This document shows positions 2,210-20,000 of a DNA stretch of 20,000 nucleotides, one piece after another (the stretch's first letter is position 1; every line of letters begins with the position of its first letter). The stretch spans positions 78,169,444 through 78,189,443 of the forward strand of contig NC_057718.1 in assembly GCF_004010195.1 (NCBI RefSeq), read 5' to 3'. The translations under genes were made by a program, and so were the position numbers. The stretch is from Chiloscyllium plagiosum (Eukaryota). The notes below the pieces were generated by a model. That model saw only the letters and a list, made by a program, of their open reading frames with translations, was not told where the DNA came from and did not search any database.

Positions 2210-3731
2210 TTGATCATAACCATTCCATCAGTTTACTTTCGATTATCAATGAAGTGATGGAAGGCATTATCAACAGTGCTATCAAGCACCACATGCTCAG
2301 AACCAAACTAAGCAGATTATTGCTATCAGGGTCACTCTGCTCCTGACCTCATTACAGCCTTGGTTCAAACATGGACAAAAAAACTAAATTTTAGAGGTGA
2401 AGTGAGAGTAAACTGATGGAATCTTCACATCAAGGCCACATTTAACCAAGTAGTCTCAAGGAGCCTGAGCAAAACCAGAATCAATGGAAATCGGGTGGGG
2501 GCTCTACTAGTTGGACTCAATCCTGGAAATTGGTCTTGGTTGTTGAAAGTCAGTCATCTCAGCTCCAGGGCATGTTTGCAGGAGTTCCTCTTTGTTCTAG
2601 GCCCAGCCATCTTCATCTGCTCTCTCAATGATCCCTCCATCATAAGGTCAGAAGTGGTAATGTTCGCTGATGATTGCACAATGTTCAGCATTGTCCGTGA
2701 TTCCTGAGATACCGAAGCAGTCCATGTTCAAATGATATATAATCTGGACAATACCTAGGCTTGGGCTGACAAGTGGCAAGTAACATTCATGCTATACAAA
2801 TACCAGGCTATGACCATCACCAACAAGAGACATTCTAACCACAACCCCTTAACATTCAGCAATGTTACCATCACTGAATCCCCACCACCAACATCTTGGG
2901 GCTTACCATTGACCAGAAACTCACTGGACTCCTCATATAAACACAGTGGCTACAAGAGCAGATCACAAGCTAGGAATACTGTGGCAAGTAACTCACCTCC
3001 TGACTCCCCAAAGCCTACTTAGCATCTATAAGGCGCAAGTCAAGAGTGTGATAGAATATTAGGAAAACGTGAGGACTGCAGATGCTGAAGATCAAAGTGG
3101 AGGTTGTGGTGCTGGAAAAGCACAGCAGGTCAGGCAGCATCCGAGGAGCAGGAGAATCGACGCTTATGCCCAAAATGTCGCTTCTCCTGCTCCTCAGATG
3201 CTGCCTGATCTGTTGTGCTTTTCCAGCGCCACAGTCTCGACTGTAATGGAATACTCCCGATTTGCCTGGATAAGTGCAGCTTTAACAACATTCAAGCTTG
3301 ACACTATCCAGGACAAAGCAGCTCACCTGATTGGCACCATATCCACAAACATCCACTTCCACCACCACCAAAACACAGTAGCAGCAGTGTGTACTATCTA
3401 CAAGATGCGCTACAGATATTCACCAAAGATCCTTAGACAGCATCTTCCAAACACATAAACACTTCTATCTAGAAGGACGAGGGCTGCATAACACCATCAC
3501 CTGCAAATTCCCTGTAAACCACTCACCATCCTGACTTGGAAATATATTGCTGTTCCTTCACTGTCACTGGGTCAAAATCATGGAATTCCCTCCATAAGGA
3601 CATTGTGAGCCAACCAACAGGGACTGGAATGGTTTAAGAAGGCAAATCACCATCAACTTCTCCAGGTAAATGGGATGGGTCATAACTGCTGGCCAGTCAG
3701 CGATGCCCATGTCCTACAAGTGAATAAAAGA
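2210..3731 (+). mobile_element. 5'-truncated, decayed CR1/L2-group LINE (RT region and 3' end), interrupted at 3061-3241
   Basis: RT motifs SISLLSIINEVMEGIIN, VLGPAIFIC, VMFADDCTMF, then YKAQVKSV.EY..AW..A..TT.KLDTIQ. Many stops and frameshifts. Ends near GAATAAAAG at ~3730. Confidence 0.85.
3061..3241. mobile_element. Penelope-like terminal fragment in fold-back form
   Basis: Inverted arms 3105-3161 and 3177-3233. Degenerate TSD TGTGATAGAATA (3047-3058) / TGTAATGGAATA (3242-3253). Related to 5421-5550 and 19257-19373. Confidence 0.75.
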
Positions 3732-5420: not shown

Positions 5421-5782
5421 GGTAAAAACAATGACTGCAGAGGCTGGAAACCAGATTCTGGATCAATGGTGCTGGAAGAGCACAGCAGTTCAGGCAGCAT
5501 CGAGGAGCTTCAGCAAAATCGACATTTCGGGCAAAAGCCCTTCATCAGGAATAAAGGCAGAGAGCCTGAAGCGTGGAGAGATAAGCTAGGGGAGGGTGGG
5601 GTGGGGAGAAAGTAGCATAGAGTACAATGGGTGAGTGGGGGAGGAGAAGAGCTTCAGGGCGGAGGAAATGACCTGGGAGTTGCAGTGGGAGAGGGACTCC
5701 CTGAGATTCTTGTAGACATAGGAGGAAAACTTCTTCAAGTCAGGCATCCTTGCAAGAGGATTCGCACTCTCCACGCTTCAGG
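5421..5782 (-). mobile_element. Penelope-like element end (pseudo-LTR with hammerhead) plus a short inverted piece
   Basis: Reverse complement matches 19257-19373. Contains a hammerhead motif at 5519-5550. 5767-5782 is an exact inverted copy of 5565-5580. Confidence 0.75.
5519..5550 (-). ncRNA. Minimal type I hammerhead ribozyme motif (near-intact)
   Basis: Minus strand UC-CUGAUGA-A-GGGC-UUUU-GCCC-GAAA-U-GUC-GA. Core boxes and stem II are intact; the stem III palindrome ACGU reads AUGU. Confidence 0.75.
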
Positions 5783-7115: not shown

Positions 7116-7120
7116 ACTGA

Positions 7121-8046
7121 TCTCAGACTGCTTCACTGTGGTGCTGCCTGTCAGAGACTGTTCCTAGACTGTTTCACCACAATGCTACTACAGGACGCTG
7201 CTAGCAGGCTGCCTCACTATAATGCTGACAGTTGGATATTATTTTATTACCTATTCACTGCAATTCTGCTACAAAACACTGTTCCCAGACTGCTTTACTT
7301 TGATGATGAGATGGACATTCTTCCTACACTGCTTCACTATGCTGCTGCTATAGGTCTGGAAATTGGGACTGGGTTGGGGGAGTAGATGGCAGGGATGATG
7401 GATGGGAGGGTTTTGATGGTCAGGCCGTGTAGGCTTGGGTGAAGAGAGATTGTGAGGACCCAGGAAGCGAGTGGTGAGATTATGATCCAGCAAAGCACCA
7501 GAGGGGAAGGAGGTTGGTGCAGAGAACTGGGAGGGGAACATGGAAAGGAGGCAGAGAAAGAGAGAGCCTCCCACCTCTTTGGCTGTCCTTGCCACTCCCC
7601 TACCCTGTCATGGCGACTAGGTGCTCCTTGTCAAATCTTTCCCCGTCCCCATACCTCTACTCCCGATTTCCCAGGCTCTCATCTTCCCTTCTCACTCTGA
7701 GAGCTTCCCCCCATTCAGCGCAGCCTCTCTACACCACTGAAGCCCAGTTCAAACTCACACATGCACATGCACAGTGATGTATTTGTGCATGATGTTACAA
7801 GTAAAATCTACATTTTGATGTCATTGCTTGGAAACATATGTCTCTGAATGAGCATGCATGCAAAGTTGCCCACAATTGTTGCTGTCAGCAAACACTGCCA
7901 CCCCAGAATGCTTCATTGCAATGATGCTAGAGGACATTGTTGCCAGTCTACTTCACTGGAAAGCCAACTGTCAGATATGTTCTCATACAGTTTCACTATC
8001 TTGCCAACTGTCAGATACTGTTCCCAGACTGCTTCACTGCAATGCT
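7121..8046 (+). repeat. Degenerate ~40-bp minisatellite (core CTGTTCCCAGACTGCTTCACTGCAATGCT) in two blocks, 7121-7350 and 7880-8046
   Basis: Core variants near 7121, 7158, 7205, 7250, 7279, 7321, 7903, 7940, 7978 and 8018. Confidence 0.7.
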
Positions 8047-8064
8047 ATATTTTGGATTGTGGAC

Positions 8065-9759
8065 ACCCTCATCTTCAAGCAGAAGGGGGAGAGGGAGGAA
8101 CTCAAAAATTGGAGACCAACCTCACTATTGAATGCGGATTACAAAATTCTGTCAAAGGTAATCGCCAACCGGGTCAGGTCTGCTCTCGGGTCGGTGATTC
8201 ACCCTGACCAAACCTGTGTTGTGCCGGGCAGAAAGATCGCTGAGAGCCTCGCGCTCCTCAGGGATACGATCGCCTACGTGCAGGACAGGGGGTTGGACAC
8301 CTGCCTGGTCAGCCTGGACCAGGAGAAAGCCTTTGACAGGATATCACACAGGTATATGAGAGATGTTCTCTCCAAAATGGGCTTTGGGGAGGGAATCTGC
8401 AATTGGATCAGACTGCTCTACACCAACATTGTCAGTGCAGCCTCAATCAATGGGTGGGAATCAGATAGCTTCCCAGTCAGATCTGGAGTCAGGCAGGGCT
8501 GCCCCCTCTCTCCTGCCTTGTTTATGTGCTGCATANNNNNNNNNNNNNNNNNNNNNNNNNNNNNNNNNNNNNNNNNNNNNNNNNNNNNNNNNNNNNNNNN
8601 NNNNNNNNNNNNNNNNNNNNNNNNNNNNNNNNNNNNNNNNNNNNNNNNNNNNNNNNNNNNNNNNNNNNNNNNNNNNNNNNNNNNNNNNNNNNNNNNNNNN
8701 NNNNNNNNNNNNNNNNNNNNNNNNNNNNNNNNNNNNNNNNNNNNNNNNNNNNNNNNNNNNNNNNNNNNNNNNNNNNNNNNNNNNNNNNNNNNNNNNNNNN
8801 NNNNNNNNNNNNNNNNNNNNNNNNNNNNNNNNNNNNNNNNNNNNNNNNNNNNNNNNNNNNNNNNNNNNNNNNNNNNNNNNNNNNNNNNNNNNNNNNNNNN
8901 NNNNNNNNNNNNNNNNNNNNNNNNNNNNNNNNNNNNNNNNNNNNNNNNNNNNNNNNNNNNNNNNNNNNNNNNNNNNNNNNNNNNNNNNNNNNNNNNNNNN
9001 NNNNNNNNNNNNNNNNNNNNNNNNNNNNNNNNNNNNNNNNNNNNNNNNNNNNNNNNNNNNNNNNNNNNNNNNNNNNNNNNNNNNNNNNNNNNNNNNNNNN
9101 NNNNNNNNNNNNNNNNNNNNNNNNNNNNNNNNNNNNNNNNNNNNNNNNNNTCCGTCAGGAAGTGGTCAGCACGTAGTGTCCTTGAGATCCTTCGGGAAAA
9201 GGAGAGGGCGGATCCTGTCGAGCGGTTCGCTGAGCAGACTGTCAAAGCCATTTGGCAGGATGCCTCATCGCCAGAACTTTCCAACACGCACCAAGACATG
9301 GCTTGGCTGGTGGTGAGAAGGGCTCTGCCTGTGAGATCATTTATGCACGCCCGGACTCTCTGCCGCACCGCACGCTGCCCTCGAAGCGGTTGCGGGGGGA
9401 ACGAGACTGTCATATACCTCCTTCTGGAATGTGCCTATGCAGAGGGAGTCTGGAGAGGAATGCAGTGGTGTTTGTCGAGGTTCGTCCCGAGCAGTGCCGT
9501 GACGCGGGACTCCGTGCTCTACGGTCTGTTTCCCGGGACGCACACCGAGACGAACATCAACTGTGCCTGGAGGATCATCAACTCGGTGAAGGACGCTCTC
9601 TGGGTGGTCTGAAACCTGCTGATCTTCCAGCTGAAGGAGTTGACCCCGACTGAGTGTTGCAGACTGGCACATTCCAAGGTCCAGGACTACGTGTTGAGGG
9701 ATGCGCTGAAGCTTGGGGCAGCTGCCGCCAAGGCGCGGTGGGGAAAGATCACTGTGTAA
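8065..9759 (+). pseudogene. Tx1 ORF2 remnant (reverse transcriptase and zf-RVT)
   Basis: NWRPTSLLNADYKILSK, SLDQEKAFDRISH, GVRQGCPLSPALF, CPRSGCGGNETVIYLLLEC. Premature TGA at 9610-9612; the frame continues (NLLIFQ..ARWGKITV) to TAA 9757-9759. The middle lies in the gap. Confidence 0.9.
8536..9150. other. Assembly gap (615 N)
   Basis: Run of N. Confidence 1.
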
Positions 9760-10081
9760 AGTCTGCCTGCCTAACGAAGAACAGGGGGCCCATGCAGTCA
9801 TTTGGGCTCTGCTGACGCCTCAGCTAATTATATGGGCATATGATTGAAAAATGTACAGACCTGTATAAAAATGATAAATTCTGAAATCTGTATGTAAATG
9901 TTTACATATGTATGGCATGACCAATTGTACAGACCATCAAATTATTTTATGAATAAAGTATATTTTTGAAATAAAAAAAATATTTTGGATTGTGGACTGA
10001 CATAGGTAAAGATCTATTTTAAAAAGCAAAAGATGTAAAAGGGATTGCTTTGCTTTTTAAAAGCAAGCTACCAACACATAT

Positions 10082-16407: not shown

Positions 16408-16530
16408 CGGGGCGCGAAACGGGACGTCACGTGACCGCCCGCAACCTTCCGGGGCGCGGAACGGGACGTCACGTGACCGCCCCGCACTCTCCCGGGTGCG
16501 AGCCGGGGATGTCACGTGGCCACGCCCCCT
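16408..16530. promoter_or_regulatory. CpG-rich tandem array (42-43 bp period) of E-box/CLEAR motif plus GC box; probable promoter edge
   Basis: GTCACGTGAC at 16426-16435 and 16468-16477, GTCACGTGGC at 16511-16520. Each is followed by CCGCCC or CCACGCCCC. CpG-dense against a CpG-depleted background. Confidence 0.65.
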
Positions 16531-16626
16531 GCTTGTGTTACAGAGTCACCACAGGGTTTTGAGTGCTGAATCCATCCAGAGTCACAGCCAGCCTTCCGTT
16601 TTTAAAGTAAGGAATATATTTACATG

Positions 16627-17352
16627 CTTCATCAGGTGGTTGTGAAGCAGGACTATAAGGCACAGAATTTAATGCAAAAGATTACAGTGATACAATGATA
16701 CTTTGAACAAATGTAAATTGTTAAGTCTTTCATCTTTTAAAATGGATTTGCTGGTTTCGGTTCTTTAATATGTAAATCCCAGAACTACTTTTAAGTCACA
16801 TGCTCAAGAATAATTTAAAGTTTTATAACAAAAGGTGACATCTCAGCTCAGACAATGCCTTAAAGATGAGTCAGACCAATCTTGAGTCAGACTGGTTCTA
16901 TTTCCAAAATGGAATTTACAAATATATAGATTCACTGACTGCATTGACTAATTGCAGATTCTGCATTTTGAGCAAAATAGAATGTACCTGCAAACATAAA
17001 TTCACCCCATAAACTTAAATGTGTGTGCACCTTACATTATCTTGAGAACGTGACTGAAAAGAAGCTCTGGGATTTACATATTAAAGAACCAAAACCAGTA
17101 AATCCATTCTGAAAAGTGAAAGACTTAACAATCTAGGTTTGTTCAATATATCATTGTATCACTGTAATCTTTTGCTATAAATTCAGTGTCTTATGGTCCT
17201 GCTTCACAACCACCTGATGAAGAAGCAGCGCTTCAAAAGCTAGTGCTTCTTTTCCAGCAACACATTTCCATCTCTAATCTCCAGCATCTGCAGACCTCAC
17301 TTTCTCCTTTTAACTTTGTTGACCCCAGTCCAACATTGGCTCATCCAAATCA
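16627..17352 (+). mobile_element. Penelope-like terminal fragment with a ~190-bp inverted duplication
   Basis: 16627-16819 is a diverged reverse complement of 17031-17222. Hammerhead motif at 17211-17245. A piece of the 3061-type family occupies 17250-17308. Confidence 0.7.
17211..17245 (+). ncRNA. Minimal hammerhead ribozyme motif with one core substitution
   Basis: CAC-CUGAUGA-A-GAAGC-AGC-GCUUC-AAAA-GCUA-GUG: stem I CAC/GUG, 5-bp stem II, palindrome AGCU. The GAAA box reads AAAA, so it is likely inactive. Confidence 0.65.
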
Positions 17353-17354
17353 CT

Positions 17355-17935
17355 GCATTTGAAGGCATGTAGCATTCAAACCAAAACAAATGAACTAGTT
17401 ACAAATTGAGATAAATAAGTACGCTCTGTTGTCCATTACTGAGACCACTCATTTCTGAAGAAGGGTCACTAGACACAAAGTAATAACTTTGGTTTCTCAC
17501 CACGGTTGCTACCAGACTTGCAGAGCTTTTCCAGCAATTTCATTTTTGTTTTTGATTTCCAGCATCTGCAGTTCTTTCGGTTTCTAAGAAATAATGGGAA
17601 CTGGTCAAAATGGTACAGCGATTATCATGGCTGATTTTAACTTACATATAGACTGGAAAAATCAGATGGGGAGAAAGTAGGTTAGATGAGGAATTCATTG
17701 AATGTTTTCTTAGATCACCATTCTACGCCACCAACCAGAGAACAGGCTATATTAGACCTGGTTTTAATAACTGAATGTGGGATCAATTACTGACCCTAGG
17801 TAGCAGAGACCATAATATGATTGAATTTTACGTACACTTTAAGCTAGAAAAATGTGGGTCTAAGTCTACTAATTGAACATAAATAAGAGCAATTATGAAT
17901 GTATGAAAACCAAGCTACCAAAGTGAACTGGCAAT
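17355..17935 (+). mobile_element. Old CR1 ORF2 AP-endonuclease fragment, interrupted at ~17445-17590
   Basis: ACSIQTKTNELV..EINKY..SITET, IIMADFNLHIDW, PTREQAILDLVL, LGSRDHNMIEF. Confidence 0.8.
17445..17590 (+). mobile_element. Short Penelope-like terminal fragment with a decayed hammerhead
   Basis: CTGAAGA-A-GGGTC-ACTA-GACAC from 17455. Body matches 6274-6417. Confidence 0.7.
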
Positions 17936-18206: not shown

Positions 18207-19117
18207 ATGGCCTTTGCAGTGATATGTACTTCTTGTCAGATGTGGGAGTTTAAAGAGAGTTTAAGGGTTACTGCGGATTATATCTGCATAAATGCTGTTG
18301 GATGCAAATCTGATCAGATCGAGTGGATCAGTTGGAGAGACAAATAGAAGCAATGAGGAATTTGCAACAGCTACAGTGTGTGATGGACTGCAGTTAAAGA
18401 AAGGGGGGAATGTCTCAGATACAGTCACATAGATGGGTTAACTCCAGGAAGGGTAAGAGAGGCAGGCAGGATATACCCATTTCAAACAGGTATGCTGTTT
18501 TGGAAAATGTAGGGGATGATGGATTCTCAGGGGAACATAGCACGAACAGCCAAGTTTCTGGTATTGAGACTGGCTCTGATGCAACGAGGGGTACGTCGGC
18601 TTCCAAGAGATCAATTGTGTTAGGGGATCCTGTAGTCTGAGGTACAGACAGACGTTTCTGTGGCCAGCAGAGAAAAATCAGAATCGTGTGTTGTTTCCCT
18701 GGTGCCAGGATCAAGGATGTCTCAGAGAGGGTGCAGAATGTTCTCACGGGGGAGAGGGGCCAGCAGGAGGTTATTGTCCACATTGGAACCAACGACATTG
18801 GAAGGGAAAAGCTTGAGACTGTGAAGGGAGATTACAGAGAGTTAGGTAGAATTTTAAAAAGGAGGTCCTCAAGGGTAGTAATATCTGGATTACTCCCAGT
18901 GCTACGAGCTAGTGAGGGCAGGAATAGGAGGATAGAACAGATGAATGCATGGCTGAGGAGCTGGTGTATGGGAGAAGGATTCACATTTTTGTATCATTGG
19001 AATCTCTTTTGGGGAAGAAGTGACCTGTACAAGAAGGACGGATTGCACCTAAATTCGAAGGAGACTAATATACTGGCAGGGAAATCTGCTCGAACTGCTT
19101 GGGAGGATTTAAACTAG
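18207..19117 (+). pseudogene. CR1 ORF1: zinc finger, coiled coil and SGNH/GDSL esterase (disrupted)
   Basis: MAFAVICTSCQMWE..DYIC/KC, coiled coil RVDQLERQIEAMR, ISNRYAVL. Esterase blocks IVLGDP (GDS mutated), FPGA, HIGTND, DGLHLN. Several stops and frameshifts. Confidence 0.88.
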
Positions 19118-19256
19118 TAAGGTGGGGGGGGTGGGACCCAGAGAGATAGTGAGGAAAGGGATCGATCTGAGACGGGTACAGCTGAGAACAGAAGTGAGTC
19201 AAACAGTCAGGGCAGGCAGGGACAAGGTAGGACTAATAAATTAAACTGCATTTATT

Positions 19257-19373
19257 GCTTTTGCCCGAAGCGTTGATTTTGCTGCTCGTCGGATGCTGCC
19301 TGAATTGCTGTGCTCTTCCAGCACCACTGATCCAGAATCTGGTTTCCAGCATCCGCAGTCATTGTTTTTACCT
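19257..19373 (+). mobile_element. 117-bp Penelope-like terminal insert
   Basis: Perfect 10-bp TSD TGCATTTATT at 19247-19256 and 19374-19383. Begins inside hammerhead stem II (GCTTTTGCCCGAAG). Same family as 5421-5550. Confidence 0.85.
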
Positions 19374-19703
19374 TGCATTTATTTCAATGCAAGGGGCCTA
19401 ACAGGGAAGGCAGATGAACTCAGGGCATGGTTAGGAACATGGGACTGGGATATCATAGCGATTATGGAAACATGGCTCAGGGATGGGCAGGACTGGCAGC
19501 TTAATGTTCCAGGATACAAATGCTACAGGAGGGATAGAAAGGGAGGCAAAAGAGGAGGCGGTGTGGCATTTTTGATAAGGGACAGCATTATAGCGGTGCG
19601 AAGGAAGGATATTCCTGGAAATACATCCAGGGAAGTTATTTGGATGGAACTGAGAAATAAGAAAGGGATGATCACCTTATTGGGATTGTATTAGACCCCC
19701 CAA

Positions 19704-20000
19704 TGTTTGTGAGAAGATTTGTAGCTCAGGTGCTCGTTGTTGTGGTTCTGTTCGCCGAGCTGGGAATTAGTGTTGCAGACGTTTCGTCCCCTGTCTAGGT
19801 GACATCCTCAGTGCTTGGGACCCTCCTGTGAAGCACTTCTGTGATCTTTCTTCCAGCATTTGTAGTGGTTTGAATCTGCCGCTTCCAGTTGTCAGTTCCA
19901 GCTGTCCGCTGCAGTGGCCGGTATATTGGGTCCAGGTCGATGTGCTTGTTGATTGTATCAGTGGATGAGCAGCAGACAGCTGGAACTGACAACCGGAAGC
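19704..20000 (-). mobile_element. Penelope-like element 3' end (ORF tail and pseudo-LTR) with an inverted segment from 19970
   Basis: Minus translation INKHIDLDPIYRPL resembles the tail after the GIY-YIG domain. Hammerhead at 19775-19814. 19970-20000 is the reverse complement of 19881-19911 with 2 mismatches. Confidence 0.85.
19775..19814 (-). ncRNA. Minimal type I hammerhead ribozyme, core intact
   Basis: Minus strand GCA-CUGAGGA-U-GUCACCU-AGAC-AGGGGAC-GAAA-C-GUC-UGC: stem I GCA/UGC, CUGANGA and GAAA boxes, stem II, palindromic ACGU stem III, GUC cleavage triplet. Confidence 0.85.

Follow-up and report, generated by a model that had tools for sequence, protein, structure and literature searches.

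Penelope-like elements (PLEs) of metazoans carry minimal hammerhead ribozymes in their pseudo-LTRs (Cervera and de la Pena 2014, PMC4209133). These were reported for the Xena, Poseidon, and Neptune elements of fishes, with about 4,000 motifs in coelacanth and about 9,000 in Xenopus (PMC4209133). When a single Schistosoma motif of this kind was assayed, there was no cleavage, and dimers gave weak cleavage (PMC4209133). In PAc, a Poseidon element of Anolis carolinensis (Frangieh et al. 2024, PMC11167929), the ribozyme cut only with protein and was dispensable for insertion in vitro (PMC11167929). More generally, PLE insertions are described as having a tail of 30-40 bp, 5' truncation, and an inverted copy at the 5' side (PMC8557442).

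We analyzed a stretch of 20,000 nucleotides from Chiloscyllium plagiosum (the window), which contains such a motif on its minus strand. With a probability of roughly 0.9, we conclude that this is a standard pseudo-LTR hammerhead of a Penelope/Poseidon-type family in bamboo-shark-like genomes, and that it is passive in a short dead copy.

A complete minimal hammerhead motif

A strict scan for type I hammerheads on both strands of the window gave a sole match, at 19814-19775. Its parts are:

19775..19814, minus: complete minimal type I hammerhead motif, predicted cut 19778/19777
19814-19812 and 19777-19775, minus: stem I, 3 bp (5' arm GCA, 3' arm UGC)
19811-19805, minus: core CUGAGGA
19804, minus: extra U after A9
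19803-19801 with 19788-19786, minus: inner pairs of stem II (GUC with GAC)
19799-19797 with 19792-19790, minus: outer pairs of stem II (CCU with AGG), beyond an A.G mismatch
19785-19782, minus: GAAA
19781, minus: C
19780-19778, minus: GUC triplet, followed by the cut (19778/19777)
19782-19779, minus: loopless palindrome ACGU (A15.1-U16.1)

The original prediction, made from the letters of the window, listed the core nucleotides CUGANGA, GAAA, and GUC, and all of them are present on the minus strand. The loopless palindromic stem III (ACGU) that it described is there too, and its cut between 19778 and 19777 agrees with ours. (The strand was not stated, and this cut site implies the minus strand.) It gave both stems 3 bp: this is right for stem I, whereas stem II extends to an interrupted 6 bp (3+3 around the A.G mismatch). 

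The motif has the intact CUGANGA, GAAA, and UH of the PLE core. It also has the remaining marks of these minimal hammerheads: an extra base between 9 and 10.1, the G10.1-C11.1 pair (G19803-C19786), the palindromic 15.2-16.2, and a place in a pseudo-LTR, where one ORF ends and the next begins. This anatomy agrees with what PMC4209133 describes and supports the claimed minimal type I, dimer-type architecture.

As a control, we shuffled the window 500 times while preserving dinucleotides. None of the 500 shuffles gave a loopless match, and 2 gave any type I match. The Rfam search that had been proposed as a check found no hammerhead among the 12 matches in the window at E <= 10. (Rfam hammerhead models expect a closed stem III.) The folding energy of the 40-nt motif is no better than that of shuffles (z = -0.36). 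Overall, the self-cutting RNA motif is real but ordinary: fishes, frogs, and reptiles are already known to have motifs of this kind.

The coding end of a Penelope-like element

The motif lies within a short PLE arm, which in turn interrupts a LINE:

19701..19969, minus: whole 5'-truncated PLE arm, 269 nt, with a stop at 19769-19767 that is private to this copy
19798..19968, minus: C-terminus of the GIY-YIG endonuclease region in an RT-EN PLE ORF, 56-57 residues
19701..19738, minus: PLE "tail", the 36-37 nt between family 3' ends at 19736-19738 and at 19701-19705, kept in this copy
19969..20000, plus: start of an inverted second copy, mirroring 19912-19881 at 94% over 32 nt and extending past the window edge
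18398..19704, plus: decayed LINE interrupted by the PLE
18641-19114, plus: esterase-type ORF1 of the LINE (Pfam Lipase_GDSL_2, E = 3.9e-12)
19245-19694, plus: AP-endonuclease of the LINE (Pfam Exo_endo_phos, E = 1.2e-11)

Using the 56 amino acids encoded by 19968-19801 as a query, we found 4 matches among 13 candidates, all from Chiloscyllium punctatum. Three of the four span the full query at 77-89% identity, and one has an RT domain. In P0002, a relative from the family, the RT domain (Pfam RVT_1, E = 3.3e-6; 27.4 bits, slightly below the cut-off of 29.6) comes before a GIY-YIG-type region that has two cysteines between its motifs. The motif VVYKIPCKDC...YIG is seen in the endonuclease region of this relative and is absent from the stub. 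Pfam's GIY-YIG family is matched faintly in P0004 (E = 0.18), and no Pfam family is matched by the stub's own peptide (19998-19801).

The passages of PMC8557442 on the linker between RT and endonuclease describe a zinc finger for Neptune and Nematis and not for Penelope/Poseidon. We tried 8 proteins and could locate the endonuclease motif in 5, and all 5 lack a linker finger of the form C-x2-5-C-x2-C. Judging by its domain layout, the element fits the Penelope/Poseidon clade.

P0001, P0003, and P0004 are annotated as isoforms of Chiloscyllium punctatum genes (a 5'-nucleotidase-domain gene and MAP3K7) that end in the family's endonuclease sequence; these ends are either exonised PLE ends or annotation artefacts. 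P0001 terminates within the ribozyme sequence.

Among the matches listed, tapeworm and fluke proteins (44-50% identity) make up most of the closest long relatives of P0002. One snake protein is 46% identical to the shark ORF, and matches from sea urchin, bee, and unnamed sources are 30-36% identical. The 40 matches listed, most of which are flatworm proteins, include no full-length shark ORF over 812 amino acids. The closeness to flatworms could reflect database bias or an old horizontal transfer.

Start and stop codons inside the ribozyme

Two codons of the PLE ORF fall within the motif:

19803..19805, minus: AUG start codon of the PLE ORF, made up of A9, the extra U, and G10.1
19795..19797, minus: stop codon of the PLE ORF, falling distally in stem II/loop II

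That is, the 40-nt ribozyme contains the start of the ORF (19805) and, 8 nt further and in another frame, its stop (19797). The cut site is 28 nt downstream of the AUG at 19805. P0001 and P0002 end at the identical residue. (P0003 reads through and P0004 is shorter.)

The peptide that starts at this AUG matches, from its first residue on, the N-termini of 2 proteins out of the 44 compared. These are P0009, from a fluke element (47% identity over 36 amino acids, E = 5e-4 among the 44 proteins), and P0010 (E = 0.009). Taken alone, the 21-aa piece beyond the private stop is a weak match to P0009 (E = 0.017). The endonuclease C-terminus upstream, the family tail, and this N-terminal match together support the claim that the motif belongs to a Penelope-like end.

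The overlap of start, stop, and ribozyme can be read directly from the strand, and we infer a function for it only with hesitation. We consider it rather unlikely, but in the parent element the hammerhead might act, when triggered by protein, as an off-switch and coupling device for translation rather than as a maker of unit-length RNA. On a tandem transcript, a ribosome finishing one ORF would then halt just beyond the next start, and cleavage 28 nt past the AUG would sever the start codon from the downstream ORF.

Family ends, the inverted neighbor, and the LINE

Of 24 listed sequencing runs, we aligned 4 to positions 19400-20000 (601 nt) at 85% likeness. The search that listed these runs named no RNA run as containing the stretch, which says nothing about expression. 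In the two DNA-type runs, 31,569 and 39,771 contigs aligned to this stretch (LINE and PLE parts together), so this is a high-copy repeat. All four runs have an end of the family sequence at 19701, three of them also have one at 19736-19738, and the loose flanks are mostly AT-rich. Relative to the PLE ORF, these 3' ends correspond to +101/+105 and +68/+70, respectively. The arm shows the PLE traits: a tail of 36-37 nt, 5' truncation, and an inverted copy at 19969, of which 32 bp are visible.

Beyond 19969, the family contigs carry on with further endonuclease sequence, and the window instead turns to the inverted copy, so 19969 is an inversion junction. If the inverted arm continues, then a mirror hammerhead would lie near 20067-20106. 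The insertion's right end, together with any target duplication, falls beyond the window. Among the contigs and reads listed from the runs, none spans the locus, so the junctions are those of the assembly.

The family of the interrupted LINE, which we take to be CR1/L2-like from its architecture, continues with different sequence behind 19693 in the aligned runs. We therefore rejected the idea that the motif is part of the LINE. The sequence CAAT at 19701-19704 is common to the LINE target and the end of the PLE (a 4-nt overlap). It may reflect microhomology at priming, or a preference for cutting at ATT, as reported for PAc.

From the anatomy of the arm and the PAc model, we infer the following history. 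Reverse transcription would have begun on a tandem transcript, about 100 nt inside the ORF, with priming at a nick in the LINE. The RT would have run back across the hammerhead, entered the end of the upstream ORF, and halted after about 270 nt; a second segment, inverted, would then have been joined at the 5' side. The ribozyme would have been carried along as a piece of the pseudo-LTR. Its cleavage in the parent element is probably rare and would occur either as a dimer via the ACGU palindrome or aided by the element's protein.

Other hammerhead relics and repeats in the window

The window contains further hammerhead relics as well as other repeats:

5516-5551, minus: second minimal hammerhead, of another family, with CUGAUGA, a 4-bp stem II, GAAA, GUC, and U replacing C15.2
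17211-17243, plus: third hammerhead relic, with G12 changed to A, an AGCU palindrome, and CUA in place of GUC
16627-16809 and 17040-17222: inverted repeat, 183 nt, 89%
16408-16540: stretch rich in GC (72%) and CpG (21), next to an assembly gap
7852-8535 and 9152-9760: fairly intact non-LTR retrotransposon ORF with visible RT motifs, split by an assembly gap, with a poly(A)-like tail near 9975
7116-7346 and 7936-8046: two blocks of a degenerate tandem repeat with a unit of about 40 nt
1047-2200: decayed gag-like frames

In the second hammerhead (5516-5551), the U at C15.2 is likely due to CpG decay. Partial copies related to it lie at about 19257-19373 (plus strand, within the LINE), and its family also forms a head-to-head palindrome at 3091-3247. 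Rfam's miRNA-like matches at 3082-3254 are the hairpin of this palindrome.

The right arm of the 183-nt inverted repeat leads into the third relic, and the left arm stops just past CUGAUGA. This repeat (16627-17222) is the same inverted PLE-type layout, seen whole. At 17455-17490 (plus strand) is a decayed hammerhead-like stretch with CUGAAGA and a broken stem II and core, which was found by eye and is not a scan match. Because the hammerhead relics of the window belong to different families, a three-way alignment of their DNA gave no information.

The GC-rich stretch contains three GTCACGTG motifs (at 16426, 16468, and 16511), two of them within a 42-nt repeat. We take it to resemble a CpG-island promoter with E-box/CLEAR-like sites; if it is a promoter, then a first intron may contain the PLE. 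The non-LTR ORF is presumably Tx1/L1-like. By resemblance, we assume that the gag-like frames are from a probable LTR retroelement; Pfam gave no relevant family for 1415-1798.

Is this copy active?

The most serious alternative to a passive relic is a ribozyme that is active in vivo in this copy, made from a minus-strand transcript and cleaving in trans with another copy from the family or with the help of a PLE protein. The original prediction was similar: it held that the copy could still self-cleave when paired with a second copy. Every core position and pair is present, and this is chemically possible. We consider it quite improbable for this copy, for several reasons.

First, an intact motif is expected in a copy with this level of divergence. 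Compared with the majority of both sets of DNA contigs, this copy has at least 8 differences in 269 nt (about 3%). The probability that all 8 listed differences would miss the 40-nt motif is 0.27, so its intactness does not require selection. At the private stop (19769-19767), 99% of the family's depth reads otherwise.

In favor of activity is the one frequent variant listed for the motif. Among the 40 of 239 variant rows listed, C17/U17 is the only variant in the motif. The change from C17 to U17 is frequent (54% and 22% of DNA depth, and 86 of 221 RNA reads), so the cleavage-site base, 19778, is naturally polymorphic (GUC/GUU), at a non-CpG site. Hammerhead cleavage sites follow the NUH rule, which U17 keeps. 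The CpG sites in this part of the motif are at 19780-81 and 19785-86. Two indels in stem II are also found in the family's RNA (16 of 237 and 10 of 231 reads).

Second, the neighboring copy is on the other strand, so it is not usable as a partner in cis, and we rejected a tandem cis dimer at this locus. The visible arms at 19969 already form a 32-bp hairpin. If the inverted arm extends further, then it would pair across the motif and would tend to hide it in a hairpin of read-through RNA.

Third, the predicted folds favor other structures. The folding energy of the active dimer is -12.7 kcal/mol; the best dimer reaches -20.9, and two monomers together reach -17.4. In the predicted fold of the 300-nt element, stem II has a probability of 0.065, versus 0.87 for a competing hairpin that pairs GAC with the GUC triplet. 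A caveat is that the Mg2+-bound core is left out of the scoring in such models, which makes the folds soft evidence.

Fourth, the RNA data tie no cleavage to this locus. About 2% of RNA run X21 was read, and 657 reads aligned (from a polyA single-cell library, possibly of a different species). Over the PLE part, 85% of first mates were on the plus strand, compared with 26% over the LINE part; taking the LINE as a control, this points to family RNA that is mostly hammerhead-sense, so trans partners may exist. But just 11 of the 657 reads are at least 99% alike, and none of them can be assigned to this locus. Mapping of RNA ends at 19777 had been suggested as a check. In the X21 reads, there was no pile-up of molecule starts or ends and no step in depth at the cut. 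(This is weak evidence, because a polyA single-cell library retains such ends poorly.)

Given also that published PLE hammerheads are weak or depend on protein, the claim that this copy still cleaves is unsupported. With no RT or same-strand partner in view, it is most likely silent.

Other readings of the motif

Another possibility is that the unit is a non-autonomous retrozyme, that is, a tandem hammerhead repeat giving small circular RNAs. The retrozymes described in bioRxiv 10.64898/2026.07.22.740005 originate from PLE pseudo-LTRs, were found in the single cartilaginous fish sampled there, and have a mean unit of 363 bp, and the arm (269 nt) is of comparable size. However, the element has a single motif with no direct repeat of it within the window, the neighboring copy is inverted, and the arm follows the coding end of an autonomous-type ORF collinearly until it stops within that ORF. 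A retrozyme requires at least two head-to-tail hammerhead units and the part inside the window has none, so we rejected this reading as very improbable indeed.

Finally, that the motif is an unselected chance product of the codons at the end of the ORF is barely credible: the overlap with coding frames, the lack of an Rfam match, and the unremarkable folding energy would fit, but the shuffles gave no loopless match, all four hallmarks outside the descriptor that can be read on one copy are present (PMC4209133), and two further relics in the window have unrelated stems.

Comparison with known systems

The preferred reading, a passive pseudo-LTR hammerhead, places the shark motif among the minimal hammerheads of PMC4209133. 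As described there, it is of type I, lacks loop 3, and has a palindromic 15.1-16.1, an extra base after A9, and the G10.1-C11.1 pair. The long helix II and short helix I are also alike, as is the genomic arrangement (mostly single scattered copies, with pairs on opposite strands 100-700 bp apart) (PMC4209133). In contrast, helix I has 3 bp here, versus 4-5 bp in the Schistosoma families, and helix II has an A.G mismatch (PMC4209133). The host group differs as well: shark names are absent from the part of the PMC4209133 supplement that was searched. In the open-access literature, we found no paper on a shark PLE hammerhead.

PAc is similar in more specific ways. Its ORF begins at stem II, and its ribozyme cuts 26 nt after the start codon (28 nt here) (PMC11167929), so the overlap of the AUG and the ribozyme is already in print. 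In PAc too, two 3' ends flank a tail about 100 nt into the ORF, the targets are AT-rich with ATT, and RNA-seq gave no reads ending at the cut (PMC11167929). The start region of PAc is at 111-118, whereas the shark ends are at +68/+70 and +101/+105 (PMC11167929). Also, PAc is full-length and was tested in vitro, whereas the shark copy is a 269-nt stub with no RT (PMC11167929).

The non-LTR retrozymes of animals share a type I hammerhead, derivation from PLEs, and a similar unit size (bioRxiv 10.64898/2026.07.22.740005). Unlike those retrozymes, the shark arm comes from a coding end and is truncated, with an inverted neighbor and no head-to-tail repeat in view (bioRxiv 10.64898/2026.07.22.740005).

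As a single copy, the motif matters little, since such motifs number in the thousands per genome in fishes and amphibians (PMC4209133). Our analysis adds a shark family to the known PLE hammerheads. Because its ribozyme contains both the start and the stop codon and its cut site varies naturally between GUC and GUU, this family would be a fair test case for the function of PLE hammerheads, though an autonomous tandem copy would be a better one than this stub.
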